IMG/VR virus record: IMGVR_UViG_3300024518_001350
Coordinates: 1-59,149 of that record
Source: a virus
Taxonomy: Duplodnaviria > Caudoviricetes
Direction: 5' to 3' (one strand)
Length of the DNA stretch: 59,149 nt
Shown: positions 29,584 through 50,804 of the stretch, piece after piece
How the letters are laid out: each line of letters opens with the position of its first letter
Position numbering within the stretch: position 1 is the first letter of the stretch
Notes under the pieces: generated by a model
What the model saw: only the letters and a program-made list of their open reading frames with translations
Database searches by the model: none
What the model was told of the DNA's origin: nothing
Position numbers and translations under genes: made by a program

Positions 29584-31683
29584 ATGGCATACAATAACGC
29601 AGGAATATCTGGCTTGACCGGACCTGATAGTCATGAGTCACCAGACATACTCCAAAGGCTGGATATGTACAGAGGCTACCCAAGTGAAAAGCTTGGGCCA
29701 ATTGCATCCAATGGAGATCTTGCAGCCGTTAGTGTGCTTGCTGACAGAAAGGATCAGGAGAGAAGACAGAAAGAAAATGCAGCTAAGAACCCAACAACCA
29801 CTGCTATAGAAGATTTGATTGCAAGGAATAACTTTCCAGTGGGTAGTAATAGTCTTCCTCAGATGCCTCAAGGTAGACCCGGTATGCAGGGAGCAGACAC
29901 TGCTATGCCTAATATGGGAAGCCCCCCAGGGGCAGGCATGATAGGCGCATCATCCTCTCCGGGGATGGGACTTGCAAGCCAAGGTCCACCCACAGGCTCT
30001 CAGATGCCCCCTGCTGGATTTAATCAACAGCAGGTACCTGGACAGCCCCCTGTCATGGGAGCCAAGGACGGGGGTCTGGTGGACAGATTCAGAAGATCTG
30101 GTGTGAGAGGGTTTAGTGGGGAATATGGCAAGTCTGGATCCTTGATGACTCCAAGTCAGAGAGACGCACTTGATGCCTATAACCGATGGGGTGTTCCTCT
30201 CCCCCCAGGACATCCAAGTTATGATACTGGTCTAGAAGTCTATGCACAGGAGTCACACGCTGATAGATATCGTGCTGAGCAGGAAGCTAGTGGAATGAAG
30301 GTGGGTAGATATAGGGACTTGCCTATACCTCGTAGCGAAATTTCATACAGGTTACCCTTTAGAAGAGATGAACTAGGTGGAGAATACGGACCAGGGCAAG
30401 CTCCTCATGTACCTGCTAGCGATCTCATGCCTCCTGTGCAGGGCATGAAATATAACTTTAATACAGAACCTAGGGAGACGTTCGATACAGGGGCAGACGT
30501 ACCCGGTCAGAAATTTGGTAGGTTTTTAAAGGCTATGAGTAAGATTGATATTCCCGATGTACTCCGTTGGGATCCTGACCACCCATCACTGCACACTAAT
30601 GATGATTGGACTAGTAATAGCGAGTACTACAAAGGTAAAGGCAAGCATGTTAGAGATATTATTGGAGATAAGATAGGTGGAGCCTATAATGCTTTCAAGG
30701 GTGGGATTGATAATAACCCACTTGGAAGGACGGGTAGTGAGTCAGGACATCCTCCGGGTGTATCATTGTTCGTTGATCAGCCATGGATGAAAAGAGTAAG
30801 AGAGAATGTAGCTCAAGGAGAGCCTGATCAAGATCGTATAGCAGCTATGGAAGGTTGGAACTGGTTCGGAGGAATGTTTGATTCTGATGATGTTGGATAT
30901 CAAAACAGAAAGAAAGCAGGAGGGCAAGCCTCTGAAGAGAAAGGAGTTGGAGGTGGCGGTGGCGGTCCTAAAGAAGGTGTAGAAGGTAGACCTAGACCAC
31001 CACTCCTAGAGGCTGGTAAGGTAGATGTTACTGCTATGGATATGTTCATGGATAAGATTGAGGAAATGCAGAGGGGTAAGAGGGGGATGGCCTTACTAGC
31101 GATGGCAGCAGAGATGGGCAAATATCATAAGGGAGGATTCCTTCCATCAGCAGTTGCTGGTATGAATGCTGCTGGTCAATCTGCAAGGGATACTGACACT
31201 CAGACTTTGAAGGGCTATGGTTTAGGAGCAGAGCTGCAACTTCAGAAAGAAAAAATTGCCAATGATTATGCAGTAGGAATGGGTAGAAATGCTTCATACG
31301 CAAGTAATGCCAATGAAAAGGCATATAAAGCCCTAACAAAGGAACAGCGAAGTCTTGTAAATGACCGTATGAAGGCATTCGATACGTCAGCAGATGGTCC
31401 AAGGGCATTAGAAGCTCTCATGCTTGGACGCATGGGATCAAGGGACGACTACAGATATCTTCAATACGCTTTCTATGGTGGAAATGAAATTGATTCAACC
31501 TTGAGTGGTGCAGGTGATTGGGGTCAAGTATCTCCTAGGGATCGTACTGAAGCCAGATCGATAGTTATGCAAGCATTAGTTGCTGATGTTCAGATGCAAT
31601 TAGACATCGGGGGATCTGGTGGGGGTGGTCAAATAAACATAGCTTCTCTGGGTGGTAAACCTATAACTGCGAGTAGATTCTAG
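29584..31683 (+). CDS. internal virion/ejection protein
   Basis: Pro/Gln/Gly-rich N-terminus, AKDGGLV motif, amphipathic C-terminal helices. Confidence 0.65.
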   Translation: MAYNNAGISGLTGPDSHESPDILQRLDMYRGYPSEKLGPIASNGDLAAVSVLADRKDQERRQKENAAKNPTTTAIEDLIARNNFPVGSNSLPQMPQGRPGMQGADTAMPNMGSPPGAGMIGASSSPGMGLASQGPPTGSQMPPAGFNQQQVPGQPPVMGAKDGGLVDRFRRSGVRGFSGEYGKSGSLMTPSQRDALDAYNRWGVPLPPGHPSYDTGLEVYAQESHADRYRAEQEASGMKVGRYRDLPIPRSEISYRLPFRRDELGGEYGPGQAPHVPASDLMPPVQGMKYNFNTEPRETFDTGADVPGQKFGRFLKAMSKIDIPDVLRWDPDHPSLHTNDDWTSNSEYYKGKGKHVRDIIGDKIGGAYNAFKGGIDNNPLGRTGSESGHPPGVSLFVDQPWMKRVRENVAQGEPDQDRIAAMEGWNWFGGMFDSDDVGYQNRKKAGGQASEEKGVGGGGGGPKEGVEGRPRPPLLEAGKVDVTAMDMFMDKIEEMQRGKRGMALLAMAAEMGKYHKGGFLPSAVAGMNAAGQSARDTDTQTLKGYGLGAELQLQKEKIANDYAVGMGRNASYASNANEKAYKALTKEQRSLVNDRMKAFDTSADGPRALEALMLGRMGSRDDYRYLQYAFYGGNEIDSTLSGAGDWGQVSPRDRTEARSIVMQALVADVQMQLDIGGSGGGGQINIASLGGKPITASRF

Positions 31684-34600
31684 TGGGAACATATAAATAC
31701 TTCTTTCCAACTGGAGGGTACTATCCTGTAGAAGATGATGTATCTATGGAAGATGCAGGCAATCAATTACAGGAATTGTATCCTGCTGGGTTCTATCAAA
31801 ATTTTAGTCCTATGCAGAGAGAAGAAGATATTCGTCAACGTGAGGCTGACAATCAAGGATTCTTTATGGATGTAGTTGGCGAGCCCATTCTTACTGGATT
31901 GGAACGTCATCTCACAACCCTTCCTTTAGCCGGTAGGTTGGCTCATGATTTTGCTACTGCAACTAAAGAGCAGATGAATGACCCTAGGCATCTACAGCAA
32001 TATCGAGATGATTTTGCAGCGATGTCACAGGAGAAGCAAAAGCATACCTTCAGGCAAGCATCTGAACTTATAGCAAGAGGTGAGTTTACAGACTCTGCCA
32101 AGGAGCTTGGCATGTCAGGGCTAGAGAATTTCTTTGGCATGTTGGCCCACTGGGCACCAACGATTGCTTCAAGCAAGCTTGGAGCTGCTGCTGGTACCGC
32201 CATAGCACCCGGTCCTGGCACTCTCGCTGGTGGTATGATTGGGTATTCTGCTATGTCTGCCGATCAGTTTCTAGCAGAGAATCTGATGGAGTCGATTCAG
32301 AGCAACCCAGACATAACCCTTAATGATATAGCAGATAGATTCCCACATTTATTACTTGCCACTGCTGGTCAGGTAGCAACTGAAGCTGTTGCCTTTAAGG
32401 TGTTGGGATTGTTCAGCAACAAGTTACTTGGCAGCATACCTAAGAATGCACCTATAAAAAGGGAACTTGTAAATTCAACTCAGAGAAAAATAGCAAGTAT
32501 AACTGGACCTAGATCTACGGTTCCTAGAAATATAGCACAAGGTGCAGTCGGAGAGGGTGGAGCAGAAGTACTCCAACACATCATGACCAAGTGGCAGGCT
32601 AATGTTCCGATAGATTACGCCGAAGAAGACCACATGTGGGAGTTGATGGAGAACTTCTGGGGTGGATTGAGTGGTGGTGCAGGTATTGGTGCAATGACTA
32701 GTCTGATTGATGGACGTAATCCACAGACTAGCAAGAGAGACAAAGATCTGCAAGATGAAAAGATTAAGAGTTGGGCACATGCTAGAGCAAGAACTGCACA
32801 GCTAGAGACCCAAAGACTTGAAGCAGAGAATAGAGATAAGCAAGCACAAGCAGCAGAAAACTCCCAACTTGAAGCTGAACTAATCAACGAGCAGATAGAT
32901 GTGGATAGGAATGAAGGTAGGTCTGTAGTCTCAGAAGAAGACATACATGCTGCTGCTCTTGAGAGGAATATAAACTCAAGAGATGGAGGGTTCATTGACT
33001 TTGTTAGGAGAACATTCCCTAGTCATGAAGGTCAAATAGATAGCCTGTCAGATCTCAGTTTACAAGAGAAGAACATCCTCTACCAGAATCTTAAAAGATT
33101 CCAGAGGCAAGGAGCAACTGGAACTGGAGAGTCACAACCCGTAAGCTTCAGGGCACACTCAGATAGTGACATTGAGAAAGTAACTGATTCTATAGCTAAG
33201 AGGTTTAAGAGACATAAGAATAAGGCTAAGTTATTCACAGTTGAAGATGTCAAGAAAATACTTGGTGATGCCAGTGATGAGAGAGCCAAATCTTTGATCG
33301 AAGAGTTGCGTGTGAACGGTGTAGTAGAAAACGAAGGGGTAACAGAAACATTAGAACGACTAACGAAGAAACATAGAGAAGATTCAGTAGATTATGATAA
33401 TGATTTCGAGCCAGACTATACAGCACAACAACTTTCTGACCTGTCAGAGGAAGCCTCTAATTGGAATGAAGGTGACAACATCTCACCAGAATTAGGTAGA
33501 TTAATATTAGATAATTCTGGATACGTACTAAACGATGCACAGGTAGATCCAAATACAAGAGCTATATTAGATATAGCGAGAGAGACAACTACATTTCCAA
33601 CATGGGAAGAGATACAGAGGCGCACTAAGGGCAGTAGCCAAGCAGAAACAGTTTTAAAAAGCCAGTATGATGAGGTTGTAGAAAAATTAAAAGCGGATGG
33701 TTCATTACAAACCAATGCAGATGGTGAACTTTTCTTGGCAAGCAGGTATGAACAGGGTGTAGTAGGGAGACAGTATAGAGGAGTAGAGAGAGGAAAGTTC
33801 GTAGTCAGGGCATTGGATGGTTCGATAATATCAGTACATGATACTATCGAAGGTGCTAAGCAGTCAGCACATGAAGCCAATGAAGACAAAGGTGGAGGAG
33901 GCTACGACCTAACAGATGACTTCGGCAACACCACTAGGATAACTGGACGTAAATCTAAAGAGAGAGCCTTAGCATTCATAAGACAGCATAAGAATAGTAA
34001 ATATAAAATATATGTTGATGGCGTAGAAGCAGAGTCAAATCTTAGTAAGACTAAGGCTGAGAAGCTTTCAAGGTGGATGAGAAGTACTAATGGACTGACT
34101 GGTCAAGAGGGGAGAAGAAGAATCACAGTAGGTAGAGATGAATCTAGCTTCCAGTTTAGATCAACTCCAGATTCATATCTGAATAAGCTACCAGATGTTA
34201 TATCTGCTGGAAACACTAAAGAGAATTTATTCGTTGTCGAGGAAACAAAGCTAGGTGAACAGGGGAGATACTTAGGAAGCAAGCTAATAGGATTAGCAGA
34301 CACATTAGCTGATGCAGAGTCTAAGGCTAACAACTTTAGAGATCTTAGGAGAAAATCATTTGACTCAGTAGGTGGCAAGATAGTAGAAGAAGATGCTGAT
34401 CTAGCAGACTTGAGGAATGATCCAATAGGTCATGCGACGAGGAGGGTCAGGGAGGAATCACCACACTTATCCGAACCTATAACTCCATCAGAATCTAAGA
34501 TATACAAAGCAGAGATGACAGAGTATGGGAAGAGGCTGGAGAAATACTTCAATAGAGCCAAGCTAGGTCATTATGGAATCGGTTTACAATTCGTTCATAA

Positions 34601-37600
34601 TATGCAGGACTTGGCATCTTCATTAAAGAATGGAGAAGATGGTTGGTTTAGTACACAGACTGGGATGATAACCTTACTTGATAGATTAGAATATTCACGC
34701 ATAGATGCTAACTCTTCAGATGAGGAAGTGTATCAAGTATTGCTCCCAATCCTGGGTCATGAGATGATGCACGCCTATGAGACACTTGGTTTAATAAAGC
34801 CTTCCGAGAAGAGAAGGATCCTGAAGAGGATGGAAAAGATAAAGAATGCAAATGGTCAGACCTTGGCAGATGAGGTGCGAGAACGGTATAGACATTTAGA
34901 GGGACCAGAATTAGAATCAGAGATGCTTGCTGTAGCGTTAGAGGTATATATAAAAGAGAGGGGATGGTCTTTAACTGATAAGCAGAAAGCATCTAAGAAA
35001 AAGGATATAACAGGTGCAGATGCAAGTGTGATGAGTAGAATTGGTACATGGCTCAGAGGTCTAGGGTCGTATGTCAATAGTAGTGAATGGACTGGAAGAG
35101 ATGAGAAGTTAATGAGTAAGTTTGTGCCAGGGGAGGAGAGGGACAGTCTTACTGTTAGGTCTGCTCGATCTGGCTTCAGACCATTTGATTCTATGGAGGG
35201 AACCATCAGGCCAGAGAGATACACCGATGGTGAGAAGATCGTATGGGATGGAGATGTAAATTCAAGAGGGGACAAGTGGTTAACTATCGTTGAAGTCAAG
35301 GATATACATAACTTGGCAGATGCTAAGGGTGTACCTTGGGATAACGATGAAGAATTTATGCAGAAAACTATGAGGCTAACTGGTAAATCTAACCATTTAG
35401 ATGAACTCAACCCAAGACAAAGGAGGCTTGTATACCTTGACCTAGCAGACATGCAAGATCCCTACAACATAACTGAAACTCAAAGAACTGTTATCCCTAA
35501 AGAAGAAAAGCCTAGAGCCTCAGCAGCCGATGAAGAAGGAGTTGATAACGAACCTTATACTTACGAAGAAGAGTATCCGGATGAAGCCTATGCTTATGAT
35601 GACGAATACGGTATGGGCAGCAGACCCATAGAAGAAGCTAGGAAACATATGAAAGAAAATGCAAATGTTTCCGTCAATATAGAAAGAATGTATGAGCAAG
35701 AGAATGTAGGTATATGGGATGAAAAGCAGCAAGAGATTATCCTTAGGGAGCTTATACAGAATGCATGGGATGCTGTTAAGGGTGCATACCGGAATGGCAT
35801 TATAGATGAGGGGTCTGGTGTTATAAACGTAGAGATAGAAAGTCCAAATGACTATACAATTTTGGAGCCCGAAGGCAAGGTTCAATCTAAGAAGACAATG
35901 GACTATGATGATCTTGAATCTTTATTTGATGGGATGGATGGCGATGTAGAATTAGTACTCTCCAACATGCGTAAGATGGGAAGCATAGAAGAAAATAATA
36001 CTTTTACCTACAGTGGATCAATGGAAGTTCAGGATAGTGGAACTGGTATGTCACCTGAAGATATAACATACCATTTCCTTAACATCAAGGGATCCTCTAA
36101 GCCCAGCACTGAAGCTTCTGAGACAAGCGGAGGATGGGGTGACGCCAAAATGAGGTTCCTCTTTAATCCAAGCCTTATAGTAGTTGAGTCAACCCAGAAC
36201 GGATTAACTACTAGAATCGTATCTGACAGTCGTACTCTCATAGAAAGCTCAACGGACGTAAACATCGTGCTACCTCACAGTGTTGAGCAAGCATGGAACT
36301 ATGGTACGAGTATGGGTCCGACATGGAGTGATGGACGATTTGACTCAGGAACAAGTGTAAAAGTTTTTCTACCAGTAGACATGCCTGTAAAACACGTAAA
36401 TAGTAAACAACGCAAGGATGTCAAGTGGACCAACCACCCAAGGTTCATGAGCTTTCCTCTAATAGGAGATGTCAAAGTAGATCTCATAGTGGATGGCGTT
36501 AGGACTGATCCAAAGGAAGACTATGATGCACCTGGGAATAGAGAAATCCCAGGAATGGGTAAGGACTTAGACATAGGTGGTAAGTACGAGGAGCCAGTTA
36601 GGTACAACGCAGATTGGGGATACATTGATGTTTACAAAGGGCCTTTTGTAACCAGACAGGTGGAGCCCGGTGATAACTTTTCAACTGCTCCAGTATACGT
36701 GTTCTCATCAGGGCTTTACCAGTTTGACACTAGAGGCCCTCAGAGATCTGGAGACACTGAGTTCTCTGGAAGGGTTGACAAAGCATTCCGATTTGATGCT
36801 TCACATGTGATTGGCAGGCTTCTAAATCGAGAGATTCTATTAGATGTACATTCAAATGTCAGACCAGGGGAGGGGGACTACCCATTCCCTAAGTCAAGAG
36901 ATTCATTGATGGAGGAGGCCAAGGAACTCACTACTATCATAGCTAGGGACATTGTAGGGGAAAGAAGAGATCTGGATAGGAAGGACTTTACCGTTAAGAT
37001 GGGTGACGCCACTTACATGAATAGAACAAATGATCCTGTTCAACAAGGGTTCGTCCACATGGATGATGAAGGGAATGCAATCGAACCTTCTGATGATACC
37101 CTCAACAATGATTTGCCATTACTATATAACTTCAGCACCATCGACAACGAAGATATAACTAATAAACAGATGGAGTTCATCGGAGGGTTGGGCAATATCT
37201 TTCGTGATTTCATAGTTGATATAGACGAGAAGGATATACAAGAGCTAGGTTCTCATAGGAAGACTATGGAATATCCTATGAGAAAGCGAGAGAAGATTGG
37301 TAATTGGTCTACTGCTATTGCTATAGCTCCGAAGAGTGACTGGGCTGGACTGAACATGTTCAAAACATTTTCAGACTCCAGTCTTGATCCAGACTCTTCA
37401 GATTTTAAGGGCTTCAGCGGTATTATGCTAATAGACCCATTCAAGTATAACTTCACCAAGTATCTAGAACAGTACATATCTAAAAACCAAGATATAATAG
37501 ATATGAACTCACATGCAACAACGGCGCAGCAGCTATCTCTAGTTAGCCTTTTACAGAAAACTAATCTTGAGACCTACGCAACAACCTGGGCAAACGCAAT

Positions 37601-40600
37601 CTATTCCACGATGGCACATGAAGCCCTTCATGTTAATCACAGGAGTCATAGTCCCGAAAGATTTATTATAGCCTTGGAAAAGTTTATTTCTGAAGGTGTT
37701 CCTTTGCACAATTTACAAGTCCACATAGACAGCCTATCTGAGCTGTTTACCCAAAACCTAAACGAGTATATAGAATTAAAGGAGATGTATGACGGAGCCA
37801 ATGCGAAATCTGATATCGGCATTCTGGAAGGGACAGAGCTACCAAAGCAAAAGCCCATTCTCAACCAAGATGATAGGGGTCTTAATACCACTAGAGACAC
37901 ACGGTCTGCTGAGCGGACAGGAGGGAGACAAAGAACTGGAGAGTCAGTTCCTCTCGGCGAAAGAGGAAGTAGAAGCAATGAGCGAAGGGGAGTTTCTAGA
38001 CTTCGTAAAGGAATAGTTGGTGAGAAGGGTAAAGCTAGTCGTAACAATACCTCGGCAGGAGGTTCAAGCTGGAGAAACCCTGCTCATGTAGGACAACCAG
38101 ATCTTATTAATAATCCAATAAGCACAAAGGATGGAAATAGGAAAATAGATATAGACAAGAAAGGCTTTCATCTACCTACTTACTTAAGGAGTGTTATTGA
38201 ATCAGTTGTACAGCATTATGCTTTATCTCGAAAGGATGAATATAATAATACTTATGGTAAGCAGAGGTTTACACCAGAAAGAGAACAATCTCTGATAGGA
38301 CAGTATAATAACATAAGCATCGAGCCATCACGGGATGACCATCCTCGTTTTCAACAGCATGATCCAAAGGATGGATATACAACTAATACTGAGATATTCA
38401 AAGAATACGTTAGTAAATATATTGCAGATGTAATAGCCTCAGACCTTGGTATACAAACTGCTGGTACTGATTTCGTCAATGACGAAAATCTAGGTGCTGC
38501 AATTGATGAAGTGATACATGAACATCATGTTAACATGATTGCTATGGGGATTAAGGATTCTAGATTCAGGCTTGACAATGGGTATGGATTGGGATCTACG
38601 CAAGCAGAATGGGATGCAGCCACGTCCATTGAAAAAGAATTAATCATTGAGGAAATTATCGAACTGCAAGTTGAGAGTATTGCTGATGAAGAATTCGGAA
38701 CAGGTGATAAAGCTATTCCTATAACGATTGATCAGGTTCGGGATGCAGTATTCAAAATACAAACCGGAAGGAAGTGGCGTAAAGGTCAGGACTCGGATAG
38801 ACCTATCAGGAATTCAGTTATAGAAAAATTTCGGATCCGAAATGATAAAGACGGAGGAAGATTAAAGGTTATAGAGAAATCTTTCGTAAGATTTACTGGA
38901 CAGGGTAGATATGAGGAGAAAGGTAAAGCTAGTAGGGGAAACCAAGGGGTGGTGGTTACTCCTGATGATGTTTCAATGCTTAGTGAGCTTACTTTGTTTC
39001 ATGGAGGAGACTCTGTACTGAAGAGTCTCAGGAGTGGGAGTGAAGGTGGGTCACTAGGCAGTGGGATTTACCTCACTCCTACAAGGGAAAAGGCTGAAGG
39101 TTACGGAAAGAATCTCTATTCCGTCAATGTAAAGATTGACAATCCTCTTATCATAAGTTCATCCCGAGACGTCACTGCCAAAGCTACCCAACCCCTTAAC
39201 TGGGCCGGAAGCAACACTGCTCCCCGGTGGCTTAATCCTGCTGAACACCTATTGATAAAGCTTGGGGTGCCGAGTGAGAAGGCTCATTCCATAGTCGAAA
39301 AAGAGGAAGAAGAGTACGGTTACGTAAGAAACCGAATCCGTTCTCTGGCGAGAAGACAGGGTTACGATGGTATACTACAGTTTATAGATGGTGAGCTAAT
39401 GGAGGTTGTTGCATTCAGCAAAGGTCAGGTTTCCAATGTAGCCGACGCCATTGGTGAAGAGAAAGGTATGGCTAATATACCAAAGAGGGAAAGGGAAAGA
39501 CTAGAACGTGATAGGCTTGAGGCTATAGAGCAACTACCCCCTGATGAGAGAAGGAGAGTTAAAGAGAGGGATAGGATAGCAAAGGCTAATTCTCTAGCCA
39601 CTAAGGCCAGGAGAAAGGAAGAGGCTGCTGCTAAGAAGGTAGTAGATGACGAGAGAGAACTCCTTGAGAGGGACATAGATACTACTATGTCAAGAGGTAG
39701 GGATCTTGGTAACATGCCAGTACAAATCTTAACCCTCAAGCATACTCCAACAGGGACAAGCATTGATATACACAAGTATCCGAAGGCTAGTGATACACTT
39801 CCATCAATAGTGGGTGTGGATATACCAGTACGCAGTGAGGGATTAGGAAGTGCTGCGATACTCATGGATTATGCTAGGGATATATATCCAGACATCAGAG
39901 TAGAACTAGGTACAGGTGACGCAACAGTACCTAATGCTAAGCGTGTTACATTGATCAGGGATCTAAGTACTGATCAAATACGGAAGCTTATCGAGGTCAA
40001 TGAAATGTTGAAAGAGCGATCCCCTAACAACACTTCTAATTACGAATCAGAAGAATACATACAGGTATTAGCTAACAGGGGAGAAAGAGGTAAAGCTTCT
40101 AGGGGGTTCGATACCACCTTACCTGATCAATTCAGGGCGAAGAAGTTAACATTTAATAAGAACACTCTCGACATGATGGTGAAGGAAGCTAAGTCTATAG
40201 CTATCAACAAGATAAAATCTAGATCCTATCCTGATCTGAAAGGTACCGAGAAGGACAGAAGGATTAAGGATATGGTTAGTAGGCAGCAACGATACTACAA
40301 TGACATCATAAGAGATGACAACATAGCGATGAAGGTAGACGTAGTATCTAAGCTTAGCAATCTATACTCTTCCAATCAGTCAGCCACTAACCATGGAGTT
40401 AACAGCTCTGATCTGTATCAGTTCCTTAAGGAGCTATCAGATGCCGGTGTTTCTAGTAATAGAGTCTTTAAGATAAAGAATGATATGTACGATAGCATGG
40501 GTATGGAAACTAGGAAGATAAAGATAAACGATCTAGAAAGAAATTTATTAGATGACGTATCTAAGATACAGTTCTCTCAAGAATTACTAGAGACTAAGAC

Positions 40601-43600
40601 TCCATTCTCTTCAATCCAGCAGTTGATGGATGACTTTAAAGAAAGAAGTCTTACTACCACACCTCGGACTCAGAATATAAATGGGAGTACGGCTTACTTC
40701 ATTGGAAACGAGCTTGGGTTCACTGAGCCGATTGCTATATTCATGAAGCCTTCCGGGTTCAGGGATATGTCTATAGTTGAGATTGTATCCAACGCCGAGT
40801 ATGGGTCTAGGAATATAGAGTATGCGGGTGAAGGGTCACCTCCACTCCATGGTGCTGAAGCGACAGTAAGAACAGCAATGATTATGCTTGATCCAAGCCT
40901 AGGCAGCAAGGTTGCACAATCAACAGAGAAAGGAAGAGCAAGCCTAGGGTATAACTCAACAGTGCATAGTACTGAAGAGCAAGCGATAATGGCTAAGGTT
41001 CATGCACCTGTAAAGCATAGTATATTCAACCAACTAAAAATGTTCTTTGCCGATGACAGCTTCCGAGAGCAGAAGCTATTGGATACAAGGGAAGGATTGG
41101 TGTTCAAGTATGATCCCATAGAGAAGACTTCTGATGAGGTGAGAAGAAGAGCCTTGGATAGGGATCCTGAAAACCCTGTGCTACTGTCCGACACTGGACT
41201 TGGAGATGTTATTCTGGCACAGAAGGGTAATGGTTTACTAGCTGCTTCGTTGAAGTATGGTGTACCAATCTTTGATAAGGTAGCTGGGCTAACTCAAGCT
41301 AAGCTAGGTAGCTTCAAGCTACAGAACATTGAAGGACTACCACCCATATATGAAAAAGAATTTGGTGGCATGATAGACATACTTGGGCCTGCCATAAGTG
41401 ACTATGGTATCAGGGAAGACCTAATGAGGAAGGTCCATGTAGTTCTGTTAGCAACCAGAGGAAGGAGATTTATAAAGGAGAAAAAATTAATACCAGAGGG
41501 TATTAATCCAGAATACCTAGCACTAGCTGATAAGTTCTTGAAGACAAACCCAGAGATTCAAGCCATAGTACACAACTATCAGAGATGGAATGAAGCAATG
41601 ATAGACCATGGGGTTGCTACTGAGTACCTATCCGAGGAGCAGGGTGCAGCATTAAAGAAAAATATGGATTACGTTTCGTTCAAGAGACAATCAATGAACA
41701 TGGAAGACCAACTCTTAGATCATGATTCACTCTTCAATCAGGAACTTCAAGAAGGACTTAAGGGTGACCTCCAAGATCTTAAGCAACCACCCAGGTACAA
41801 GGGTAGCAGGTATGGATTGATAGAAGGCTTCCTAGAGGGAGCTAGCCTTAATGCGTTTACTATGATCCAGAGGGGTCTGAATAATCGGGCAAGTAAGTCT
41901 GTAATAAATGATCAGAAGATTATATTCCCCGATCAGGTTAGGCGTGCAGGTGAGGGCAAAGATGCTAATGGAGTAGATAACAATAAGCTTAGGGATATGA
42001 ATGGTGAGCTACCCACCATGATAGTGAGGGAGAATGGTGAAGAGGTAACATATGTAATAGCTGATGCTCGTGTGGCGAATGCAATGAAGGGATCAATAGG
42101 TATTAGGGATCCATTTGTGGATGGAGTAATGGCTAGGTTCTCTGCTGTGCTGAGGAAGGGTGTCACCATAGCACCAGAGTTTATATACAGAAACACACTA
42201 AAAGATCCAATGGTAAATGCTCTGATCGGTGGTCAATTCAAGGGCTGGAAGGCTCTTACATTGCCATTCGTTGTAGCGGGCAATGCAGTGTCTCACCTTG
42301 CAGGTGGGTCAAGCTACTACACTAAGGAGTTCCTTGAGCTTGAGTCCGTTGGTGGTGCTAGTGGTATCTATAATGATGCACTGTATGCACCAACCCCCGA
42401 GGGATTCAACAACATGCTGGGAGATCAGAAGAGGGGCAAGATAGGATTGAATCCAAAGAAGACATTCTTCGCTATATGGGATGGGCTTGGTGTTGCAAGT
42501 ACCAAATCTGAAACTGCAACTAGGGAGAGAGTTTATGATTCAGTATTGAATGAAACTGGTAGCCTTAAAGAAGCTTTGATACAAGGCATTGAAGTTATGA
42601 ACTATGACAGGAGAGGTGGTAACCAGAACTTTGCTAGGTACGCTTCGATGGCAACCTTCTTGAGTGCCAGTATAAACGGTTGGGACATAGCAGACAGGAC
42701 ATTAAGAAAGGGTACATATAGTATTGATGCCAATCAGAACAACAACGAAGCAAGGAAGAGAGCATGGTACAGGGTAGGTGCGATGGCTGCATTATCTGTC
42801 GGCTATGCCCTAGCATGGGCAGGTGGAGATGATGATGAATGGAGATCATTCGGAGATGAGGTTAGATATAGTAACTGGTTAGTTCCATTCTTTGGTAGTG
42901 CTATCGCAGTCGGGTTGCCATTTGAGTTAGGTGTACTAACTAAGGTGATACCAGAGCTAGCGGTAAGGACGATGCTAAAGGGTATGGATCCATCTGAAGC
43001 AGCCATGATACTGCTAGGTCAAGTTTGGGGTGCAGCTCCAAACATAGCTATGCCTACAGCCTTAGCTGGCATGATCAACATAGGCGGGAGTCCTTGGTCA
43101 GAATCAAGAGGGTGGAATCCCTTCCTTAAGTCTCCTATAATCCCTGACCATATGCCAGTTGGTCCAATGGCTTACGATAATAAGACTAGCCTAACTGCAA
43201 GAGGCTTAGCTACTATGCTTCCGGGTGGTAGTAGTCCTAAGAAATGGGAACATCTTGTCTCTATGTATGGTGGCACCATGGCTGTCAATATCCTAGCTAT
43301 AGCTGATACACTCGTTGATCAACTGATGCCTGGGTTTGCAGCTACCCCCTACACTGAAGCATTTGAAAATATACCTACAGTGAGAGCTATACTCAAACAC
43401 CCGGATGGTGCATCACATATAAATAAATTCCATAAATGGTTCAAGCAGGTAGAGGATCTTACTCATGAGGTTAGAGTTCTGAGTATAGAGAATCCAGCGA
43501 AGGGAAGAAAATTAAAAGAGGCAAACCGTACTACATTGAAGTATGCTCCGATGGCTCAGTCAGTTAAGTCTAGACTTCAAAAGCTTGATAGAAAAGCAAG

Positions 43601-43754
43601 GATAATCAGAGCAAATAAGCATATGGGTAGTAGCGAAAGAACAAAAGCGTTAGAGAGAATAAGGCTAATGAAATTAACTGAGGTTCAGAGGTTTAACAAA
43701 AAGATAGAGGGTAAAGATTACAAGCACATGTCTTATAGTGGTAGAACGTACTGA
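31683..43754 (+). CDS. giant polyvalent internal virion protein (zincin, GHKL ATPase, second zincin, ART-like, GNAT-like, LPD38-like C-terminus)
   Basis: HEMMH at 34758; RELIQNAWDA / DSGTGM / GGWG GHKL motifs; HEALH at 37617; LFHG..GIYLT..GYDGI ART-like; PFELG-type LPD38-like tail. Confidence 0.85.
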   Translation: MGTYKYFFPTGGYYPVEDDVSMEDAGNQLQELYPAGFYQNFSPMQREEDIRQREADNQGFFMDVVGEPILTGLERHLTTLPLAGRLAHDFATATKEQMNDPRHLQQYRDDFAAMSQEKQKHTFRQASELIARGEFTDSAKELGMSGLENFFGMLAHWAPTIASSKLGAAAGTAIAPGPGTLAGGMIGYSAMSADQFLAENLMESIQSNPDITLNDIADRFPHLLLATAGQVATEAVAFKVLGLFSNKLLGSIPKNAPIKRELVNSTQRKIASITGPRSTVPRNIAQGAVGEGGAEVLQHIMTKWQANVPIDYAEEDHMWELMENFWGGLSGGAGIGAMTSLIDGRNPQTSKRDKDLQDEKIKSWAHARARTAQLETQRLEAENRDKQAQAAENSQLEAELINEQIDVDRNEGRSVVSEEDIHAAALERNINSRDGGFIDFVRRTFPSHEGQIDSLSDLSLQEKNILYQNLKRFQRQGATGTGESQPVSFRAHSDSDIEKVTDSIAKRFKRHKNKAKLFTVEDVKKILGDASDERAKSLIEELRVNGVVENEGVTETLERLTKKHREDSVDYDNDFEPDYTAQQLSDLSEEASNWNEGDNISPELGRLILDNSGYVLNDAQVDPNTRAILDIARETTTFPTWEEIQRRTKGSSQAETVLKSQYDEVVEKLKADGSLQTNADGELFLASRYEQGVVGRQYRGVERGKFVVRALDGSIISVHDTIEGAKQSAHEANEDKGGGGYDLTDDFGNTTRITGRKSKERALAFIRQHKNSKYKIYVDGVEAESNLSKTKAEKLSRWMRSTNGLTGQEGRRRITVGRDESSFQFRSTPDSYLNKLPDVISAGNTKENLFVVEETKLGEQGRYLGSKLIGLADTLADAESKANNFRDLRRKSFDSVGGKIVEEDADLADLRNDPIGHATRRVREESPHLSEPITPSESKIYKAEMTEYGKRLEKYFNRAKLGHYGIGLQFVHNMQDLASSLKNGEDGWFSTQTGMITLLDRLEYSRIDANSSDEEVYQVLLPILGHEMMHAYETLGLIKPSEKRRILKRMEKIKNANGQTLADEVRERYRHLEGPELESEMLAVALEVYIKERGWSLTDKQKASKKKDITGADASVMSRIGTWLRGLGSYVNSSEWTGRDEKLMSKFVPGEERDSLTVRSARSGFRPFDSMEGTIRPERYTDGEKIVWDGDVNSRGDKWLTIVEVKDIHNLADAKGVPWDNDEEFMQKTMRLTGKSNHLDELNPRQRRLVYLDLADMQDPYNITETQRTVIPKEEKPRASAADEEGVDNEPYTYEEEYPDEAYAYDDEYGMGSRPIEEARKHMKENANVSVNIERMYEQENVGIWDEKQQEIILRELIQNAWDAVKGAYRNGIIDEGSGVINVEIESPNDYTILEPEGKVQSKKTMDYDDLESLFDGMDGDVELVLSNMRKMGSIEENNTFTYSGSMEVQDSGTGMSPEDITYHFLNIKGSSKPSTEASETSGGWGDAKMRFLFNPSLIVVESTQNGLTTRIVSDSRTLIESSTDVNIVLPHSVEQAWNYGTSMGPTWSDGRFDSGTSVKVFLPVDMPVKHVNSKQRKDVKWTNHPRFMSFPLIGDVKVDLIVDGVRTDPKEDYDAPGNREIPGMGKDLDIGGKYEEPVRYNADWGYIDVYKGPFVTRQVEPGDNFSTAPVYVFSSGLYQFDTRGPQRSGDTEFSGRVDKAFRFDASHVIGRLLNREILLDVHSNVRPGEGDYPFPKSRDSLMEEAKELTTIIARDIVGERRDLDRKDFTVKMGDATYMNRTNDPVQQGFVHMDDEGNAIEPSDDTLNNDLPLLYNFSTIDNEDITNKQMEFIGGLGNIFRDFIVDIDEKDIQELGSHRKTMEYPMRKREKIGNWSTAIAIAPKSDWAGLNMFKTFSDSSLDPDSSDFKGFSGIMLIDPFKYNFTKYLEQYISKNQDIIDMNSHATTAQQLSLVSLLQKTNLETYATTWANAIYSTMAHEALHVNHRSHSPERFIIALEKFISEGVPLHNLQVHIDSLSELFTQNLNEYIELKEMYDGANAKSDIGILEGTELPKQKPILNQDDRGLNTTRDTRSAERTGGRQRTGESVPLGERGSRSNERRGVSRLRKGIVGEKGKASRNNTSAGGSSWRNPAHVGQPDLINNPISTKDGNRKIDIDKKGFHLPTYLRSVIESVVQHYALSRKDEYNNTYGKQRFTPEREQSLIGQYNNISIEPSRDDHPRFQQHDPKDGYTTNTEIFKEYVSKYIADVIASDLGIQTAGTDFVNDENLGAAIDEVIHEHHVNMIAMGIKDSRFRLDNGYGLGSTQAEWDAATSIEKELIIEEIIELQVESIADEEFGTGDKAIPITIDQVRDAVFKIQTGRKWRKGQDSDRPIRNSVIEKFRIRNDKDGGRLKVIEKSFVRFTGQGRYEEKGKASRGNQGVVVTPDDVSMLSELTLFHGGDSVLKSLRSGSEGGSLGSGIYLTPTREKAEGYGKNLYSVNVKIDNPLIISSSRDVTAKATQPLNWAGSNTAPRWLNPAEHLLIKLGVPSEKAHSIVEKEEEEYGYVRNRIRSLARRQGYDGILQFIDGELMEVVAFSKGQVSNVADAIGEEKGMANIPKRERERLERDRLEAIEQLPPDERRRVKERDRIAKANSLATKARRKEEAAAKKVVDDERELLERDIDTTMSRGRDLGNMPVQILTLKHTPTGTSIDIHKYPKASDTLPSIVGVDIPVRSEGLGSAAILMDYARDIYPDIRVELGTGDATVPNAKRVTLIRDLSTDQIRKLIEVNEMLKERSPNNTSNYESEEYIQVLANRGERGKASRGFDTTLPDQFRAKKLTFNKNTLDMMVKEAKSIAINKIKSRSYPDLKGTEKDRRIKDMVSRQQRYYNDIIRDDNIAMKVDVVSKLSNLYSSNQSATNHGVNSSDLYQFLKELSDAGVSSNRVFKIKNDMYDSMGMETRKIKINDLERNLLDDVSKIQFSQELLETKTPFSSIQQLMDDFKERSLTTTPRTQNINGSTAYFIGNELGFTEPIAIFMKPSGFRDMSIVEIVSNAEYGSRNIEYAGEGSPPLHGAEATVRTAMIMLDPSLGSKVAQSTEKGRASLGYNSTVHSTEEQAIMAKVHAPVKHSIFNQLKMFFADDSFREQKLLDTREGLVFKYDPIEKTSDEVRRRALDRDPENPVLLSDTGLGDVILAQKGNGLLAASLKYGVPIFDKVAGLTQAKLGSFKLQNIEGLPPIYEKEFGGMIDILGPAISDYGIREDLMRKVHVVLLATRGRRFIKEKKLIPEGINPEYLALADKFLKTNPEIQAIVHNYQRWNEAMIDHGVATEYLSEEQGAALKKNMDYVSFKRQSMNMEDQLLDHDSLFNQELQEGLKGDLQDLKQPPRYKGSRYGLIEGFLEGASLNAFTMIQRGLNNRASKSVINDQKIIFPDQVRRAGEGKDANGVDNNKLRDMNGELPTMIVRENGEEVTYVIADARVANAMKGSIGIRDPFVDGVMARFSAVLRKGVTIAPEFIYRNTLKDPMVNALIGGQFKGWKALTLPFVVAGNAVSHLAGGSSYYTKEFLELESVGGASGIYNDALYAPTPEGFNNMLGDQKRGKIGLNPKKTFFAIWDGLGVASTKSETATRERVYDSVLNETGSLKEALIQGIEVMNYDRRGGNQNFARYASMATFLSASINGWDIADRTLRKGTYSIDANQNNNEARKRAWYRVGAMAALSVGYALAWAGGDDDEWRSFGDEVRYSNWLVPFFGSAIAVGLPFELGVLTKVIPELAVRTMLKGMDPSEAAMILLGQVWGAAPNIAMPTALAGMINIGGSPWSESRGWNPFLKSPIIPDHMPVGPMAYDNKTSLTARGLATMLPGGSSPKKWEHLVSMYGGTMAVNILAIADTLVDQLMPGFAATPYTEAFENIPTVRAILKHPDGASHINKFHKWFKQVEDLTHEVRVLSIENPAKGRKLKEANRTTLKYAPMAQSVKSRLQKLDRKARIIRANKHMGSSERTKALERIRLMKLTEVQRFNKKIEGKDYKHMSYSGRTY

Positions 43755-43784: not shown

Positions 43785-44540
43785 TTGGGGAGAAAAAAGC
43801 ATCTCGTTATAGGGGACAGTCATTCAAAGCCAGGGATCAGTAATGCTAGGTACACATGGTTAGGAAGGATGATCGCAGCAGAGAAGCCTGATGTCATTAT
43901 AGACATAGGTGATTTCTATGACATGGAATCATTATGTGGGTGGGACAAGGGCAAGAGAGCATTCCAAGGAAGAGAATATAAAAAAGATATTGAACACGGG
44001 TTAGATGCACAGGACAGGATAGAGGCAGAGCTAAAGAAAGTTAAGGGGTACAAGCCTAAGAAGATTAGATGCTTAGGTAACCATGAGAATAGAATATCTA
44101 GAGTGGTCGAGGACCAAGCAGAGTTCTATGGAACCTTAACTCGTAGTCATTTCCAGAGTGAAGAGTATGGCTGGGAAGAGCATGACTATCTTGAGCCAGT
44201 CAAGGTTGATGGCATAGCATACTGCCACAGCTTTGCCTCTGGTATAATGGGACGACCAATCAGTGGTGAAAACCCAGCAGCATCACTACTTAATAAAAAG
44301 AAAATGAGTTGTATAATTGGTCACAACCATGTGCTAGACTTTGCAACAAGAAACGATGCAATGGGAAAGAAGATGAGTGCAGTTTCAGTTGGTTGTTTCT
44401 TTGAACATGATGAAGCTTATGCTGGTCCACAAGTAAATAGGATGTGGGATAGGGGCATAGTAATTCTTAATGATGTTCAGGCTGGTGAGTTTGACTTTGA
44501 GTGGTGGTCAATGAGAAGAATAAAGGGGAAATATTCATGA
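43785..44540 (+). CDS. calcineurin-like metallophosphoesterase
   Basis: GDSH, DIGD, GNHE, H and GHNH motifs. Confidence 0.9.
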   Translation: MGRKKHLVIGDSHSKPGISNARYTWLGRMIAAEKPDVIIDIGDFYDMESLCGWDKGKRAFQGREYKKDIEHGLDAQDRIEAELKKVKGYKPKKIRCLGNHENRISRVVEDQAEFYGTLTRSHFQSEEYGWEEHDYLEPVKVDGIAYCHSFASGIMGRPISGENPAASLLNKKKMSCIIGHNHVLDFATRNDAMGKKMSAVSVGCFFEHDEAYAGPQVNRMWDRGIVILNDVQAGEFDFEWWSMRRIKGKYS

Positions 44541-45133
44541 GTATTTTAAGTGAACCAGAAACAAAACTAAACCTACCAGCTCCTGAGCTGACACACATAG
44601 TTGATATGGGTGTAGACATAACAAATAGAACAATCTACTTCGATGACTTTGAAGAAGAAAGTGGACAGTGGTTTCTACAGGTCATGAAGTATTTTGAAGG
44701 TCAAGATGTTGAGGATGTAGATCTGTTTTTAAACTCTCCAGGCGGGGATGTTATCAGTATGTTTGCGATCCATGATATAATGAGAAACTCTCCTATAAAT
44801 GTGAGAGTTACAGGGTATGGTCAGGTTTGCAGCGCAGGTGTACTGATACTGGCAGCAGGCAATGAGAGGAATGTAACTGAATCATGTAGCTGGATGTCAC
44901 ATGAACCCACTAGTGGTGGTGATCCAGACCTAGGCTTAAGAGCAGCTAAGTCTAGACGTAAGTGGGAAGACTGGAGCCATGTACACTGGTGCAGTTTAAT
45001 GGCTAGATACACACCTAACTCATCAGACTGGTGGGAAAAGCATACAGAAAAACAGGCAGAGTATTGGCTGTTGGGTGGGAAAGAAATTGTCGAAGCAGGA
45101 TTAGCGGACAGGGTAGTGAAAGGAAATGTATAA
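44537..45133 (+). CDS. clpP: ClpP-like serine protease
   Basis: LNSPGGDV, VCSAG (Ser), MSHEP (His), GLAD; ATGA-coupled start at 44537. Confidence 0.85.
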   Translation: MSILSEPETKLNLPAPELTHIVDMGVDITNRTIYFDDFEEESGQWFLQVMKYFEGQDVEDVDLFLNSPGGDVISMFAIHDIMRNSPINVRVTGYGQVCSAGVLILAAGNERNVTESCSWMSHEPTSGGDPDLGLRAAKSRRKWEDWSHVHWCSLMARYTPNSSDWWEKHTEKQAEYWLLGGKEIVEAGLADRVVKGNV

Positions 45134-47407: not shown

Positions 47408-48097
47408 TTATTTCTCCTCTGTTTTTGCTGTTAGTGTAGCTGCACGATCTGTGAATACTTCAGTGATAGATTTCCTGTCATCCATCTTGTTGATAGATGC
47501 TGCGTTATTCTTCCAATATTCTCTCAGGTCAGATATGTTATCAATTGCCATGATACTATCCTTCAGCACAATCGTAGTGGCTCTGTCCTTTTTACTTTGA
47601 AGCTTCTCATCATAAGCATCTTGCATTTTCTCATTGTGATTTGGATCATCGTTCTTCTTGTGGATAGGTATAGGCTTAAGCGTTGGCTTCCTTTGCTTGA
47701 CCTGTTTCACTGGGTCAGCCTCTGGAAGATCTTCACCTGCATATATGTAATGACCCAACCCGAATAGTCCTATACACTTGGTAAGAACTCTCATCCTTGT
47801 TGAGTTTATGTTCCAAGAGTTAGGATTTTGAATGGGCTTGTTCCTGAAGTCGAGTACTGGTAGCCACATCCTTCTCTTGCAATCACCTATTACTATCTCT
47901 ACATTGCAGAGGACACTACCATCTGGCATGACTTCCTCGTCAAGCATGTTAATCTCTGCATCAGGAAAGTGCTTCATAAGCATTCCCCATGCCCATGCCC
48001 AGCTAAGGTAGGTCAATCCATTCTTAGATTCTACATGATCTGAACAATTTACTTTACTAAGTGTATCCCATATTGATTTGTATGTTGCTTGTGCCAT
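47408..48097 (-). CDS. sak: Sak (DUF1071) single-strand annealing protein
   Basis: LTYLSWAWAW, MWLPVLD, GLGHYIYAGEDLP. Confidence 0.9.
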   Translation of the reverse strand: MAQATYKSIWDTLSKVNCSDHVESKNGLTYLSWAWAWGMLMKHFPDAEINMLDEEVMPDGSVLCNVEIVIGDCKRRMWLPVLDFRNKPIQNPNSWNINSTRMRVLTKCIGLFGLGHYIYAGEDLPEADPVKQVKQRKPTLKPIPIHKKNDDPNHNEKMQDAYDEKLQSKKDRATTIVLKDSIMAIDNISDLREYWKNNAASINKMDDRKSITEVFTDRAATLTAKTEEK

Positions 48098-48108
48098 TTT
48101 TTTATCCT

Positions 48109-49011
48109 TTAGTTTTCAATTATTTGTTTGTATTGTGAACAGTATTCCTTAAAGTCACACCAAGATTCGCATCTTGTATTCTTTCCCATCCTTTCTTCTA
48201 TAACGTAAGCATCACCCTTTCCCTTTCCAAATGTTAGTGCTTCATCGGCAGTGTCAAAAACTCTTGTTGCCCTTTTTCTTTGTGACCCGTTCGCTATGAA
48301 ATTATATACAGCATATGTTTTATCTTTCGCCCATCTCTCCTCCTTTGTACAATCAGGCAGCAATGATTCATCATCTATACCCTCAACCATTGAGTGCTTG
48401 AGAACCCTTGATCGTATGAAGTCCATCCTTTCTTGAGCATCCCACAGGATCATCTCTACTAGAACAACAGGTGCTTCAGGGTAACCCTCTTTTCTACCAG
48501 CCTGTACCTTTGACCAGTCCCTTATAATAGCCCAGACACCTACTCCATTCACCTTCCTGCCTGTCGATTCTTCAACTAAAGTTGCATAGATATTGAGTTG
48601 CTCTTCCCATTCTCTCTTGCCATCAGGATTATATGTTAGAGTACTGGCACTGGTTGTTTTGTAATCATGTACTAGGTATCCCTCTCCATTTTTAATTTGA
48701 AGATCTATCTGCCCAGACAAAACAAAACCGTCTACATTCATGTACAGACGTTCCTCTGCAATATCATCTCCATCTCTATTTTGTTCAAGGATATGATGTA
48801 TCGCAGTACCTAGTAGCGGGAAGATAGAGTCATAGTAATCTTTCTCTATCTTGTCTTTGTATATATGTTTCATCCTTGAGATACGTGGGCTATCAATTAT
48901 TTCTGTAGCAGAGAAGTCGGCTTCGCCTTTAGTGTAGCCATCATTCTCTATCGCCTTAAGAAAAGGCTTGGGTAGATTATATTTGTTACTGCTCATTAAC
49001 CCTTGCTCCAA
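48109..49011 (-). CDS. PD-(D/E)xK exonuclease (Cas4/RecB-like)
   Basis: GTAIH, EERL, GQID, DYKT, QLNIY and C-terminal Cys residues. Confidence 0.85.
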   Translation of the reverse strand: MEQGLMSSNKYNLPKPFLKAIENDGYTKGEADFSATEIIDSPRISRMKHIYKDKIEKDYYDSIFPLLGTAIHHILEQNRDGDDIAEERLYMNVDGFVLSGQIDLQIKNGEGYLVHDYKTTSASTLTYNPDGKREWEEQLNIYATLVEESTGRKVNGVGVWAIIRDWSKVQAGRKEGYPEAPVVLVEMILWDAQERMDFIRSRVLKHSMVEGIDDESLLPDCTKEERWAKDKTYAVYNFIANGSQRKRATRVFDTADEALTFGKGKGDAYVIEERMGKNTRCESWCDFKEYCSQYKQIIEN

Positions 49012-49273: not shown

Positions 49274-49336
49274 GTCTACCTCCCTGTGCTATTGTTTTTG
49301 GATTGACGAGTGTACAATCTTCTCGCGGTAAGTCAA
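49268..49336. promoter_or_regulatory. overlapping opposed sigma70-like promoters
   Basis: + strand TTGCAT-N16-TATTGT (with TGTGC); - strand TTGACT-N16-TACACT. Confidence 0.55.
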
Positions 49337-49344
49337 GGAGAATT

Positions 49345-49755
49345 GTGGAAAAAATAAAAGAAAAATGTCCGATCATCTGGCAGGGTACTATTATCGGTGA
49401 GCCAGCAAGTAAGTCCAACTCTCGTAGGATAATAAGCAGAGGGAAAAATAGCAGAATAATAAAATCAAAAAAGGCTTTAGACTATTCTTCTTCAATGGAG
49501 CAACAACTTTCTATACTATGTAAAGATGTTGATATGTTAGAAGGTTTGTTGTCAATATACTTTGATGTTTGGTACGCCTCTAGAAGGCCAGACCTAGACG
49601 TTGAATTGCTAAAGGATGTGATGCAAGGATGGGTATACAAGAACGACCGACAAGTAAGAGAGCAGCACGCAAGATGGCATCTAGATACGGAAGCCCCAAG
49701 ATGTTTGATAAGAGTGCTAATGTACGAAGAAGGAGAGATGACCCTGAAGATATAG
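49345..49755 (+). CDS. rusA: RusA Holliday junction resolvase
   Basis: GEPASKSN, RPDLD, NDRQV; GTG start after AAGGAG. Confidence 0.85.
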   Translation: MEKIKEKCPIIWQGTIIGEPASKSNSRRIISRGKNSRIIKSKKALDYSSSMEQQLSILCKDVDMLEGLLSIYFDVWYASRRPDLDVELLKDVMQGWVYKNDRQVREQHARWHLDTEAPRCLIRVLMYEEGEMTLKI

Positions 49756-50501: not shown

Positions 50502-50577
50502 TGGTAGGGGTGGAGGGAGTCGAACCCTCACTGTAAGGATTTTAAGTCCTCTTTCTCTGCCATTGGAATACACCCCC
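50502..50577 (-). tRNA. tRNA-Leu(UAA) with short variable loop
   Basis: 76-nt cloverleaf, anticodon loop CTTAAAA, TTCGA T-loop, ACCA end. Confidence 0.9.
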
Positions 50578-50728: not shown

Positions 50729-50804
50729 TGGTACTCTGGGTAGGGGTCGAACCTACAACCTGTTGGTTAGAAGCCAACTGCTCTATCCATTGAGCTACCA
50801 GAGC
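50729..50804 (-). tRNA. tRNA-Arg(UCU)
   Basis: 76-nt cloverleaf, anticodon loop CTTCTAA, CCA end. Confidence 0.93.

Follow-up and report, generated by a model that had tools for sequence, protein, structure and literature searches.

The window analysed here is the whole of the 59,149-base IMG/VR virus record IMGVR_UViG_3300024518_001350 (Caudoviricetes; estimated completeness 93%), and the subject of this report is one open reading frame (ORF) of 4023 amino acids (aa) in it, which encodes a polyvalent protein, and within that protein a short peptide that recurs six times. The peptide follows the pattern E[KR][GP][KRM]A[SN] and starts at aa 1275, 2114, 2412, 2593, 2801 and 3082. From the arrangement of these copies, which we call joint motifs, the protein may be read in three parts: a conserved N-terminal module, at whose end a putative zincin lies; five autonomous cassettes that make up a variable array; and a conserved C-terminal LPD38 module of about 940 aa. 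The features are listed below in window coordinates, the six joint motifs having been located by pattern search.

31683-43754, plus strand: gene of the 4023-aa polyvalent, predicted virion (ejection-type) protein; GTG start; recognised by Pfam LPD38 and ART-PolyVal
34374-35105, plus strand: zincin region (aa 898-1141), conserved in the family, N-terminal to the cassette array; BLASTP to P0008 with E=1e-9, HExxH aligned
34758-34772, plus strand: HEMMH of the zincin region (aa 1026-1030), read from the sequence
35505-35525, plus strand: joint motif 1, EKPRASA (degenerate)
35526-38021, plus strand: cassette 1, GHKL-type ATPase (ELIQNAWDA at aa 1356, DSGTG at aa 1451) with a second HExxH (HEALH, aa 1979)
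38022-38042, plus strand: joint motif 2, EKGKASR, inside an Arg/Gly-rich linker
38043-38915, plus strand: cassette 2, orphan domain containing FHLPTY; no Pfam or PDB match
38916-38936, plus strand: joint motif 3, EKGKASR
38937-39458, plus strand: cassette 3, predicted ART-PolyVal ADP-ribosyltransferase (Pfam), with H2440, Y2463 and E2574 conserved
39459-39479, plus strand: joint motif 4, EKGMANI (degenerate; EKGKANI in relatives)
39480-40082, plus strand: cassette 4, charged coil and small alpha/beta domain; no significant Pfam family
40083-40103, plus strand: joint motif 5, ERGKASR
40104-40925, plus strand: cassette 5, orphan domain
40926-40946, plus strand: joint motif 6, EKGRASL, where the variable array meets the conserved C-terminal module
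40947-43751, plus strand: conserved C-terminal module with LPD38 (aa 3717-3877, nt 42831-43313), from Pfam and homology; aa 3733-3756 are hydrophobic

The six copies of the linker were recovered where the original prediction, made from the bare sequence, had placed them, with the spacings it gave (839, 298, 181, 208 and 281 aa) and with the DNA string GAGAARGGTAAAGCTAGT common to copies 2 and 3. In 2000 shuffles of the protein the loose pattern occurred 0.005 times on average and never more than once, against six real copies, and the strict form E[KR]G[KR]AS 0.0005 times against four. A motif-blind search for 6-mers also returned the four strict copies as the largest family, with a thin margin, as five shuffles reached 2-3 copies. 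The pattern is absent from every other stop-to-stop ORF of at least 80 aa in all six frames of the window. At the DNA level, the motif accounts for the top two direct-repeat families between positions 35000 and 41500 (23 nt, 78-83% identity).

The earlier domain labels fared unequally. Pfam confirmed both the LPD38-like end, with 53-56 bits against a cut-off of 27, and the ART-like cassette, with 35.4 bits against a cut-off of 31.2 when the cassette was searched alone, the ART-PolyVal model spanning residues 18-173 of its 174 aa. The GHKL label was borne out in part: the N-box ELIQNAWDA and the DxGxG box DSGTG speak for it, yet the Pfam model HATPase_c_3 reached only 22.4 bits, below its cut-off of 25. 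The GHKL part is common to L005, L007 and P0071 (23-27% identity). The GNAT-like label proposed for aa 2593-2800 gained no support from Pfam, which gave only a chance-level match there (E=0.12). The zincin is called from its HEMMH and from homology to the HExxH region of family members, and no Pfam peptidase model matches it. Sequence searches of the PDB with cassette 1 and with cassettes 3-4 gave nothing useful; cassettes 2, 4 and 5 had no relatives outside the window lineage in the searches made; and the 4023-aa protein as a whole had no match in PHROGs, NCBIfam or PADLOC.

The joints appear to lie in linkers outside folded domains. The N-terminal conserved module, zincin region included, ends at about aa 1146, before motif 1, and distant LPD38 proteins are homologous from about aa 3100 onwards, directly past motif 6. 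A comparison of aa 2100-3110 with 1.84 billion representative proteins gave 200 matches; among the matches listed, most lay within query residues 312-511 and ended at about 485-497, motif 4 being at query residue 494. Polar residues around the motifs are above average (60th-89th percentile).

The sole close relative in the collections searched is L004, an IMG/VR contig in which the gene is cut at its 5' end and which is the same as L085 and P0013. L085, a metagenome contig, is 100% identical to L004 over 2475 aa, and L004, L084 and L085 count as one strain. Further relatives were sought in IMG/VR, metagenomes, genomes and among shorter proteins, with only L004/L084/L085 and P0013-P0015 being found. 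Identity between L004 and the window is 93.5% over aa 493-1274, 76.7% over 1275-2113, 80.7% over 2114-2411, and 92.6-96.8% in all that follows aa 2593. Between the last two segments, L004 is without exactly aa 2416-2596, a 181-residue motif-to-motif unit that holds the ART domain, and at its junction, EEKGKA|NIPK, motif 3 contributes the left half and motif 4 the right. L004 also carries an extra cassette of about 179 aa (L004 2369-2926, aa 790-975 of its ORF) that starts directly past motif 1 and ends in an acidic stretch without a motif; it has no Pfam match and no homologue among all proteins and loci collected. Breakpoints of module gain and loss fall on the linker, a point that the original prediction had proposed to check by aligning orthologues. 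Indels of at least 3 residues between the window and L004 number 11. Four of them, among them both of the large ones and an 11-aa indel directly after motif 2, are found in the stretches from -3 to +13 aa round the motif starts, which together make up 2.9% of the aligned protein (binomial p 2e-4 for the 4/11 and 8e-4 for the two large indels).

Synonymous divergence (dS) from L004 is a mosaic: it is 0.11 for the N-terminal part, rises to 0.37 in cassette 1, falls to 0.04 in the linker round motif 2, and is 0.15-0.20 further on. This fits an exchange of cassette 1 for a more distant allele, the crossovers lying near the joints. The 80-aa Arg/Gly-rich linker round motif 2 (aa 2061-2140, nt 37863-38102) has 92-97% identity and the lowest dS of the parts compared, and is the best-conserved stretch of the variable region, the adjoining cassettes being 60-75% identical in places. 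A clean step in identity at motif 1 was looked for and rejected: identity is uneven along the profile (53-98% over windows of 40 aa), so that the breakpoint at motif 1 rests on the indels and dS only. In cassette 2 the ratio of nonsynonymous to synonymous divergence (dN/dS) against L004 is 0.71, compared to 0.09-0.27 in cassettes 4, 5 and the C-terminal module, and selection on cassette 2 may be relaxed or diversifying.

Two more distant proteins extend the comparison. P0014, of 1076 aa, is 42-63% identical by part (51% overall) and retains EKGRASR, EKGKASK and DEKGKANIP at the matching joints, with 6-7 of the 7 positions of the motif peptide kept. Its cassette 2 is present as two tandem paralogues, each led by its own motif, and its copy of cassette 4 is 61% identical. 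P0015, a fragment of 188 aa, holds a cassette 5 that is 90% identical behind a different upstream sequence, the switch occurring at GEKGKASR. The ART cassette is missing from L004, L085, P0013 and P0014, and since both L004 and P0014 do without it, the ART-less junction is probably ancestral and the window has probably gained the cassette. The comparisons with L004, P0014 and P0015 uphold the earlier claim that the linker splits the middle of the protein into cassettes. P0014 ends where motif 5 is expected, P0015 opens with a short coil and then a motif, and the contigs of both are 4892 bases long; the two may be adjacent on one and the same contig, in a gene that is split or frameshifted. At about aa 270-290 of P0014, RKFSL stands six residues past EKGRASR, both motif types being found there side by side.

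Seawater metagenome contigs that cover positions 37500-41500 (four runs) are all ART-bearing. The cassette is found in contigs of the independent runs X2 and X3, runs X4 and X5 having only low-depth fragments, and one seawater contig of 13 kb has 2 differences over 3.6 kb. Joints that skip a cassette were not found in these contigs, which drop rare variants and are thus uninformative on polymorphism.

What the original prediction missed is that many LPD38-type polyvalent proteins share a joint of which the motif is a local variant. We assembled a family set of 66 ORFs of at least 1800 aa from 79 IMG/VR loci. In the variable middles of these other LPD38 giants, recurrent motifs of several forms are found: K[YF]SL[AS]R; KKFSL/IRYSL; [DE][ILV]P[TL]FSR; GRAAVRRE/GRFAVDRS; and DFSLAAG/DFALSAG. 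Three or more PxFSR motifs occur in 20 of the 66 ORFs and three or more K[YF]S[LV] motifs in 13, compared to 0.03 and 0.2 motifs per protein in shuffles. The [KR]ASL of L019 and L033 connects the aromatic form with the KASR and RASL of the window. To judge by these sequence patterns, the heptapeptide is the lineage form of a family-wide joint, [KR]-Φ-S-[LVR] or PxFSR, with a core of a basic residue, an aromatic residue or Ala, Ser, and Leu, Val or Arg.

The family-wide joint, too, coincides with breakpoints. In all-against-all BLAST comparisons of the variable regions within each group, with related proteins counted as independent, segment ends lie within 10 aa of a motif in 48% of 777 cases for PxFSR and in 43% of 698 for KYSL (random positions, 9% and 8%). 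When the proteins of the PxFSR group (17, three exact duplicates having been dropped) are cut at their motifs they yield 63 cassettes, and those that have partners fall into 15 clusters with varying neighbours; clusters B and D of the KYSL group are found in either order. A profile made from the ART cassette of the window detects 36 complete ART domains in the family, and with the same counting of related proteins a motif stands within 40 aa on both sides in 31 of them (upstream in 31, downstream in 34; background 0.06 per 40 aa), a single motif match falling inside the 36 domains. The degenerate copies EKPRASA and EKGMANI also still act as joints in relatives. With gain, loss, duplication and re-ordering of cassettes all having breakpoints at the joint, we consider it highly probable that the motif is a joint at which cassettes are exchanged. 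Outside the LPD38 family, the strict pattern flanks ART domains on either side in only 6 of 68 cases. A looser tail, P-D-[ILVM]-[RTNSK]-x-[SMA] (N-P-D-I-R-[KYF]-S), follows the end of the Pfam ART-PolyVal match in 84 of 175 distinct ART domains (in P0018-P0162 and L005-L083, many of them proteins without LPD38), for which reason the joint may be older and wider than the LPD38 family.

By its codons, the joint is conserved as a peptide and, partly, as DNA. The Ser codons of the motifs in the window are TCA, AGT, AGT, TCT and AGC and so belong to both codon classes, and both classes are likewise used in 17 of 20 PxFSR proteins, compared to only 2 of 13 KYSL proteins; Ser being kept across the two classes points to selection on the amino acid. 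The motif Ser codons are at the same time skewed (AGT in 44 of 67 against 0.25 gene-wide; AGC in 40 of 50 against 0.22), and the uniformity of the motif codons, together with the lowest dS in the linker round motif 2, points to copying or conversion of joint DNA. The earlier suggestion that the linker serves as a microhomology for cassette exchange is weakened as the sole reason for conservation, given both Ser codon classes and a peptide that is kept at 51% identity. Initiation at internal start codons or Shine-Dalgarno pausing at the GAGGAGAAAGGT joint DNA was rejected as an explanation: relatives do not have the ATG of motif 4, and other motif families are without such DNA. Promoters and terminators inside the gene were also discarded, as their counts are the same as in shuffles. 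The phage has recombination functions of its own:

47408-49011, minus strand: Sak-like single-strand annealing protein and exonuclease (PHROGs E=4e-44 and 7e-45)
49303-49755, plus strand: RusA-like resolvase, which with the two preceding proteins forms the phage's own recombination module

The Sak-like protein, the exonuclease and the RusA-like resolvase could carry out a short-homology exchange.

The explanation that we prefer joins these observations in two steps. Cassettes would be exchanged in frame by short-homology recombination across the joint DNA, with the annealing protein and exonuclease of the phage, and the peptide would be retained because it is a processing site, with a predicted cut between the Ala or aromatic residue and the invariant Ser (EKGKA|SR, P1/P1'). 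Once cut, the cassettes would be set free as separate effectors, in the capsid or after ejection, and the built-in zincin would be the family-wide candidate protease. Self-processing of polyvalent proteins by their zincins was proposed by Iyer et al. in 2017 (in the part of PMC5512222 that we consulted). Taken whole, as joint, exchange and processing site, we find the explanation evenly poised. Putative cleavage at the joint, which is suggested by the pattern of residue conservation, falls somewhat short of that. For the zincin as the cleaving enzyme the case is doubtful; its HExxH occurs in 65 of the 66 family ORFs and stands upstream of the array in most of the motif-bearing ones, which makes it a better candidate than the ClpP-like enzyme described below. 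Only tentatively would we extend the idea to LPD38-type proteins at large as phage polyproteins, in which the protein's own zincin would read a scissile joint and free anti-host enzymes after ejection, the DNA of the same joint being the crossover point.

Several points weigh against this explanation. The zincin is also found in 32 of the 33 family members with fewer than three recognised motifs, and being nearly universal its presence does not discriminate, so that a correlation between zincin and motif is without power. By the regular expressions used, 33 of the 66 family ORFs are without a clear recurrent motif. Asn replaces Ser in motif 4, and stably so in relatives. Free-standing cassette genes were absent among 3668 flanking ORFs of 79 related loci (E <1e-8), gene fission at the joints was not found either, and natural gene fission consequently lends no support to the existence of separate polypeptides. 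The literature found, in the parts available, describes no cleavage of this protein or its homologues, and N4 virion RNA polymerase, ArdC and TraC1 travel uncleaved according to the consulted part of PMC5512222. The location of the joints outside folded domains is drawn from homology limits and composition only, the breakpoint and ART-bracketing statistics take related proteins as independent, and there is only one independent close relative and therefore few events in the window lineage.

Part of this is what one would expect if the motif were a flexible inter-domain hinge and recombination joint in a protein that is never cut, its uniformity coming from copying of joint DNA, gene conversion and weak constraints on composition. 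Motif codons more uniform than gene-wide usage, the low dS of 0.04 round motif 2, the standing of the motif DNA as the top direct repeats of the region, the annealing protein and exonuclease, the lack of gene-fission forms, and the polyvalent proteins reported to stay intact (PMC5512222, in the part consulted) all agree with such a hinge, and we see it as a reasonable possibility without thinking it probable. A hinge alone has no need of an invariant Ser, however, and the retention of that Ser across both codon classes, of 6-7 of the 7 motif positions in a relative that is 42-63% identical elsewhere, and of the core Φ-S-[LVR] across lineages with unrelated DNA all argue for a constraint on the peptide itself. 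A further rival to cleavage is docking or modification, the motif being bound or modified, for instance, in the course of capsid packaging, by a chaperone, by a host factor or by a Ser kinase. The invariant Ser with a basic residue two positions upstream in most variants, the polar linkers around the motif, and its being private to this protein would suit that role; the PxFSR form is without the upstream basic residue, the presence of a single copy per cassette at each joint agrees better with a boundary function than with docking, and no partner was identified, and we hold docking or modification to be very improbable.

Cleavage by another enzyme was also part of the original prediction, which named the ClpP-like enzyme encoded nearby as a second candidate. 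The genes concerned are:

43785-44540, plus strand: metallophosphoesterase gene, the neighbour of the 4023-aa ORF
44501-45133, plus strand: predicted ClpP-like serine protease gene (Pfam PF00574, 66 bits)

The ClpP-like protein might cut the EKGKASR sites in place of the zincin, having co-evolved with the Ala-containing motif of this lineage. Its gene lies two genes downstream in the same operon and is present in this phage and its close relative alike, its catalytic Ser and His align with those of ClpP, and a motif found in no other ORF would be in keeping with a dedicated pair of enzyme and substrate. Against this, among 42 related virus records only that of L004 has PF00574, and none of the 17 near-complete ones does, while joint motifs are widespread there, so the enzyme cannot be the general one for the family joint, and its candidacy as the linker protease is weakened; it is also absent from the records of the other [KR]ASL lineages, L019 and L033 (61-63% complete). 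The position of the triad Asp is taken by His, and the protein scores below all NCBIfam cut-offs. Cleavage by the ClpP-like enzyme is in our view improbable. The gene is distant from the portal-capsid module, in which there is no protease. It stands at the end of the late operon and overlaps the end of the metallophosphoesterase gene by 40 nt.

The preferred explanation, exchange at the joint and processing of the peptide, has counterparts in several known systems. Polymorphic toxins have motifs that demarcate their variable modules: VENN in CdiA, and PxxxxDPxGL in Rhs, the latter being also an autoproteolysis site. The likeness is in the swapping, by recombination, of variable effector domains beside a conserved demarcating motif (Zhang et al. 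2012, PMC3482391; for MuF toxins PMC5576092; both consulted in part), and here as well a motif demarcates variable modules and breakpoints fall on it. Unlike the polymorphic toxins, which have one C-terminal toxin, orphan cassettes and immunity genes, the present protein has serial cassettes that are each bounded by joints; no orphan cassettes were found among the same 3668 flanking ORFs of 79 related loci, and no immunity genes were seen. In giant phages, the prohead protease cuts at a site that is also present in capsid and scaffold proteins, and its gene lies in the head module. Processing of SPN3US gp245 (PMC10052503, in the part consulted) resembles the scheme put forward here, in which cleavage is putative, in that a short consensus site marks where a phage protease cuts proteins that are packaged and ejected. 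It differs from it, as do the prohead-protease substrates of the T4, phiKZ and SPN3US type in general, in that the motif here is confined to one ORF and the sole protease gene is outside the head module and lineage-specific. Polyproteins of eukaryotic RNA viruses are single translation products with the same short site at every domain junction. Those are replication polyproteins, whereas here a predicted virion cargo of a DNA phage is concerned and cleavage is putative.

The class to which the protein belongs was described by Iyer, Burroughs, Anand, de Souza and Aravind in 2017 (PMC5512222, consulted in part). The protein shares with it the giant multi-domain format, the coding by a mobile element, the LPD38 and ART-PolyVal domains with a putative zincin, the predicted delivery with DNA, and mosaicism. 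Polyvalent proteins have 2-15 domains and are encoded by mobile elements; the present one has at least 7 modules, in a record with terminase, portal and capsid genes, and it combines an LPD-type domain with an anti-host enzymatic one, LPD38 and ART-PolyVal both scoring above their cut-offs. Here a recurrent joint motif is defined and cassette exchange at it documented; the words 'linker', 'boundar' and 'shuffl' do not occur in the main text of Iyer et al. (PMC5512222) so far as consulted, where mosaicism is treated only in general terms, and a full-text search of the literature (LPD38, ART-PolyVal, large polyvalent protein, ejection polyproteins) found no description of the joint motif. The recurrent joint motif and the exchange at it thus appear not to have been described before, while polyvalent proteins and their mosaicism are known.

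Phages have in their polyvalent proteins a major arsenal of anti-host enzymes, most of it unexplored. The joint motif provides a rule for dividing their giant ORFs into functional units, which aids annotation and the expression of single cassettes, many of them with orphan folds, and it shows a route by which phages remodel this arsenal in frame. It also makes the self-processing proposal testable, now that the peptide is defined, its scissile bond predicted and a candidate enzyme named. If the tentative reading of LPD38-type proteins at large as polyproteins is true, the motif would supply the substrate site that the zincin processing of the 2017 proposal lacks, and if cleavage takes place a DNA phage would be using a polyprotein strategy.

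That the protein is carried in the virion, as the original prediction assumed, is backed for the class of its homologues only. Two LPD38 proteins were detected by mass spectrometry in purified virions and are abundant virion proteins according to the parts of the reports consulted: phi24B gp47, of 2811 aa (bioRxiv 10.64898/2026.04.10.717836), and JC1 gp69, of about 4500 aa (PMC9144972). These phages, with Bcep22 (gp75), share with the window a podovirus class with an SU10/GP4-like portal, a double adaptor ring and the C-terminal LPD38 module; gp47 and gp69 differ in that similarity is confined to the C-terminal module and that the consulted parts report no joint motif or processing. Relatives of the C-terminal module number 508 in IMG/VR, and a DNA search of the window against phage records gave no match.

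A podovirus structural operon has the 4023-aa ORF as its final large gene, after the tail genes, and comprises a large terminase (TerL), an SU10-like portal, a major capsid protein (MCP) as well as two paralogues of the SU10-type adaptor. The two adaptor genes (11947-12726 and 13276-14073, plus strand) match the double adaptor ring of phi24B/GP4-type podoviruses. Many members of the family (the PxFSR group L009-L082; L008, L035, L045, L047 and others) have a second HExxH, of the NFETLLHEGIHQAT type, and in several the variable region also has, further on, an HEGRHR motif. Three tRNA genes lie on the minus strand: Leu(taa) at 50502-50577, Arg(tct) at 50729-50804 and Met(cat) at 57915-57990. The Arg(tct) tRNA reads AGA, the commonest Arg codon of the gene for the 4023-aa protein (44%).

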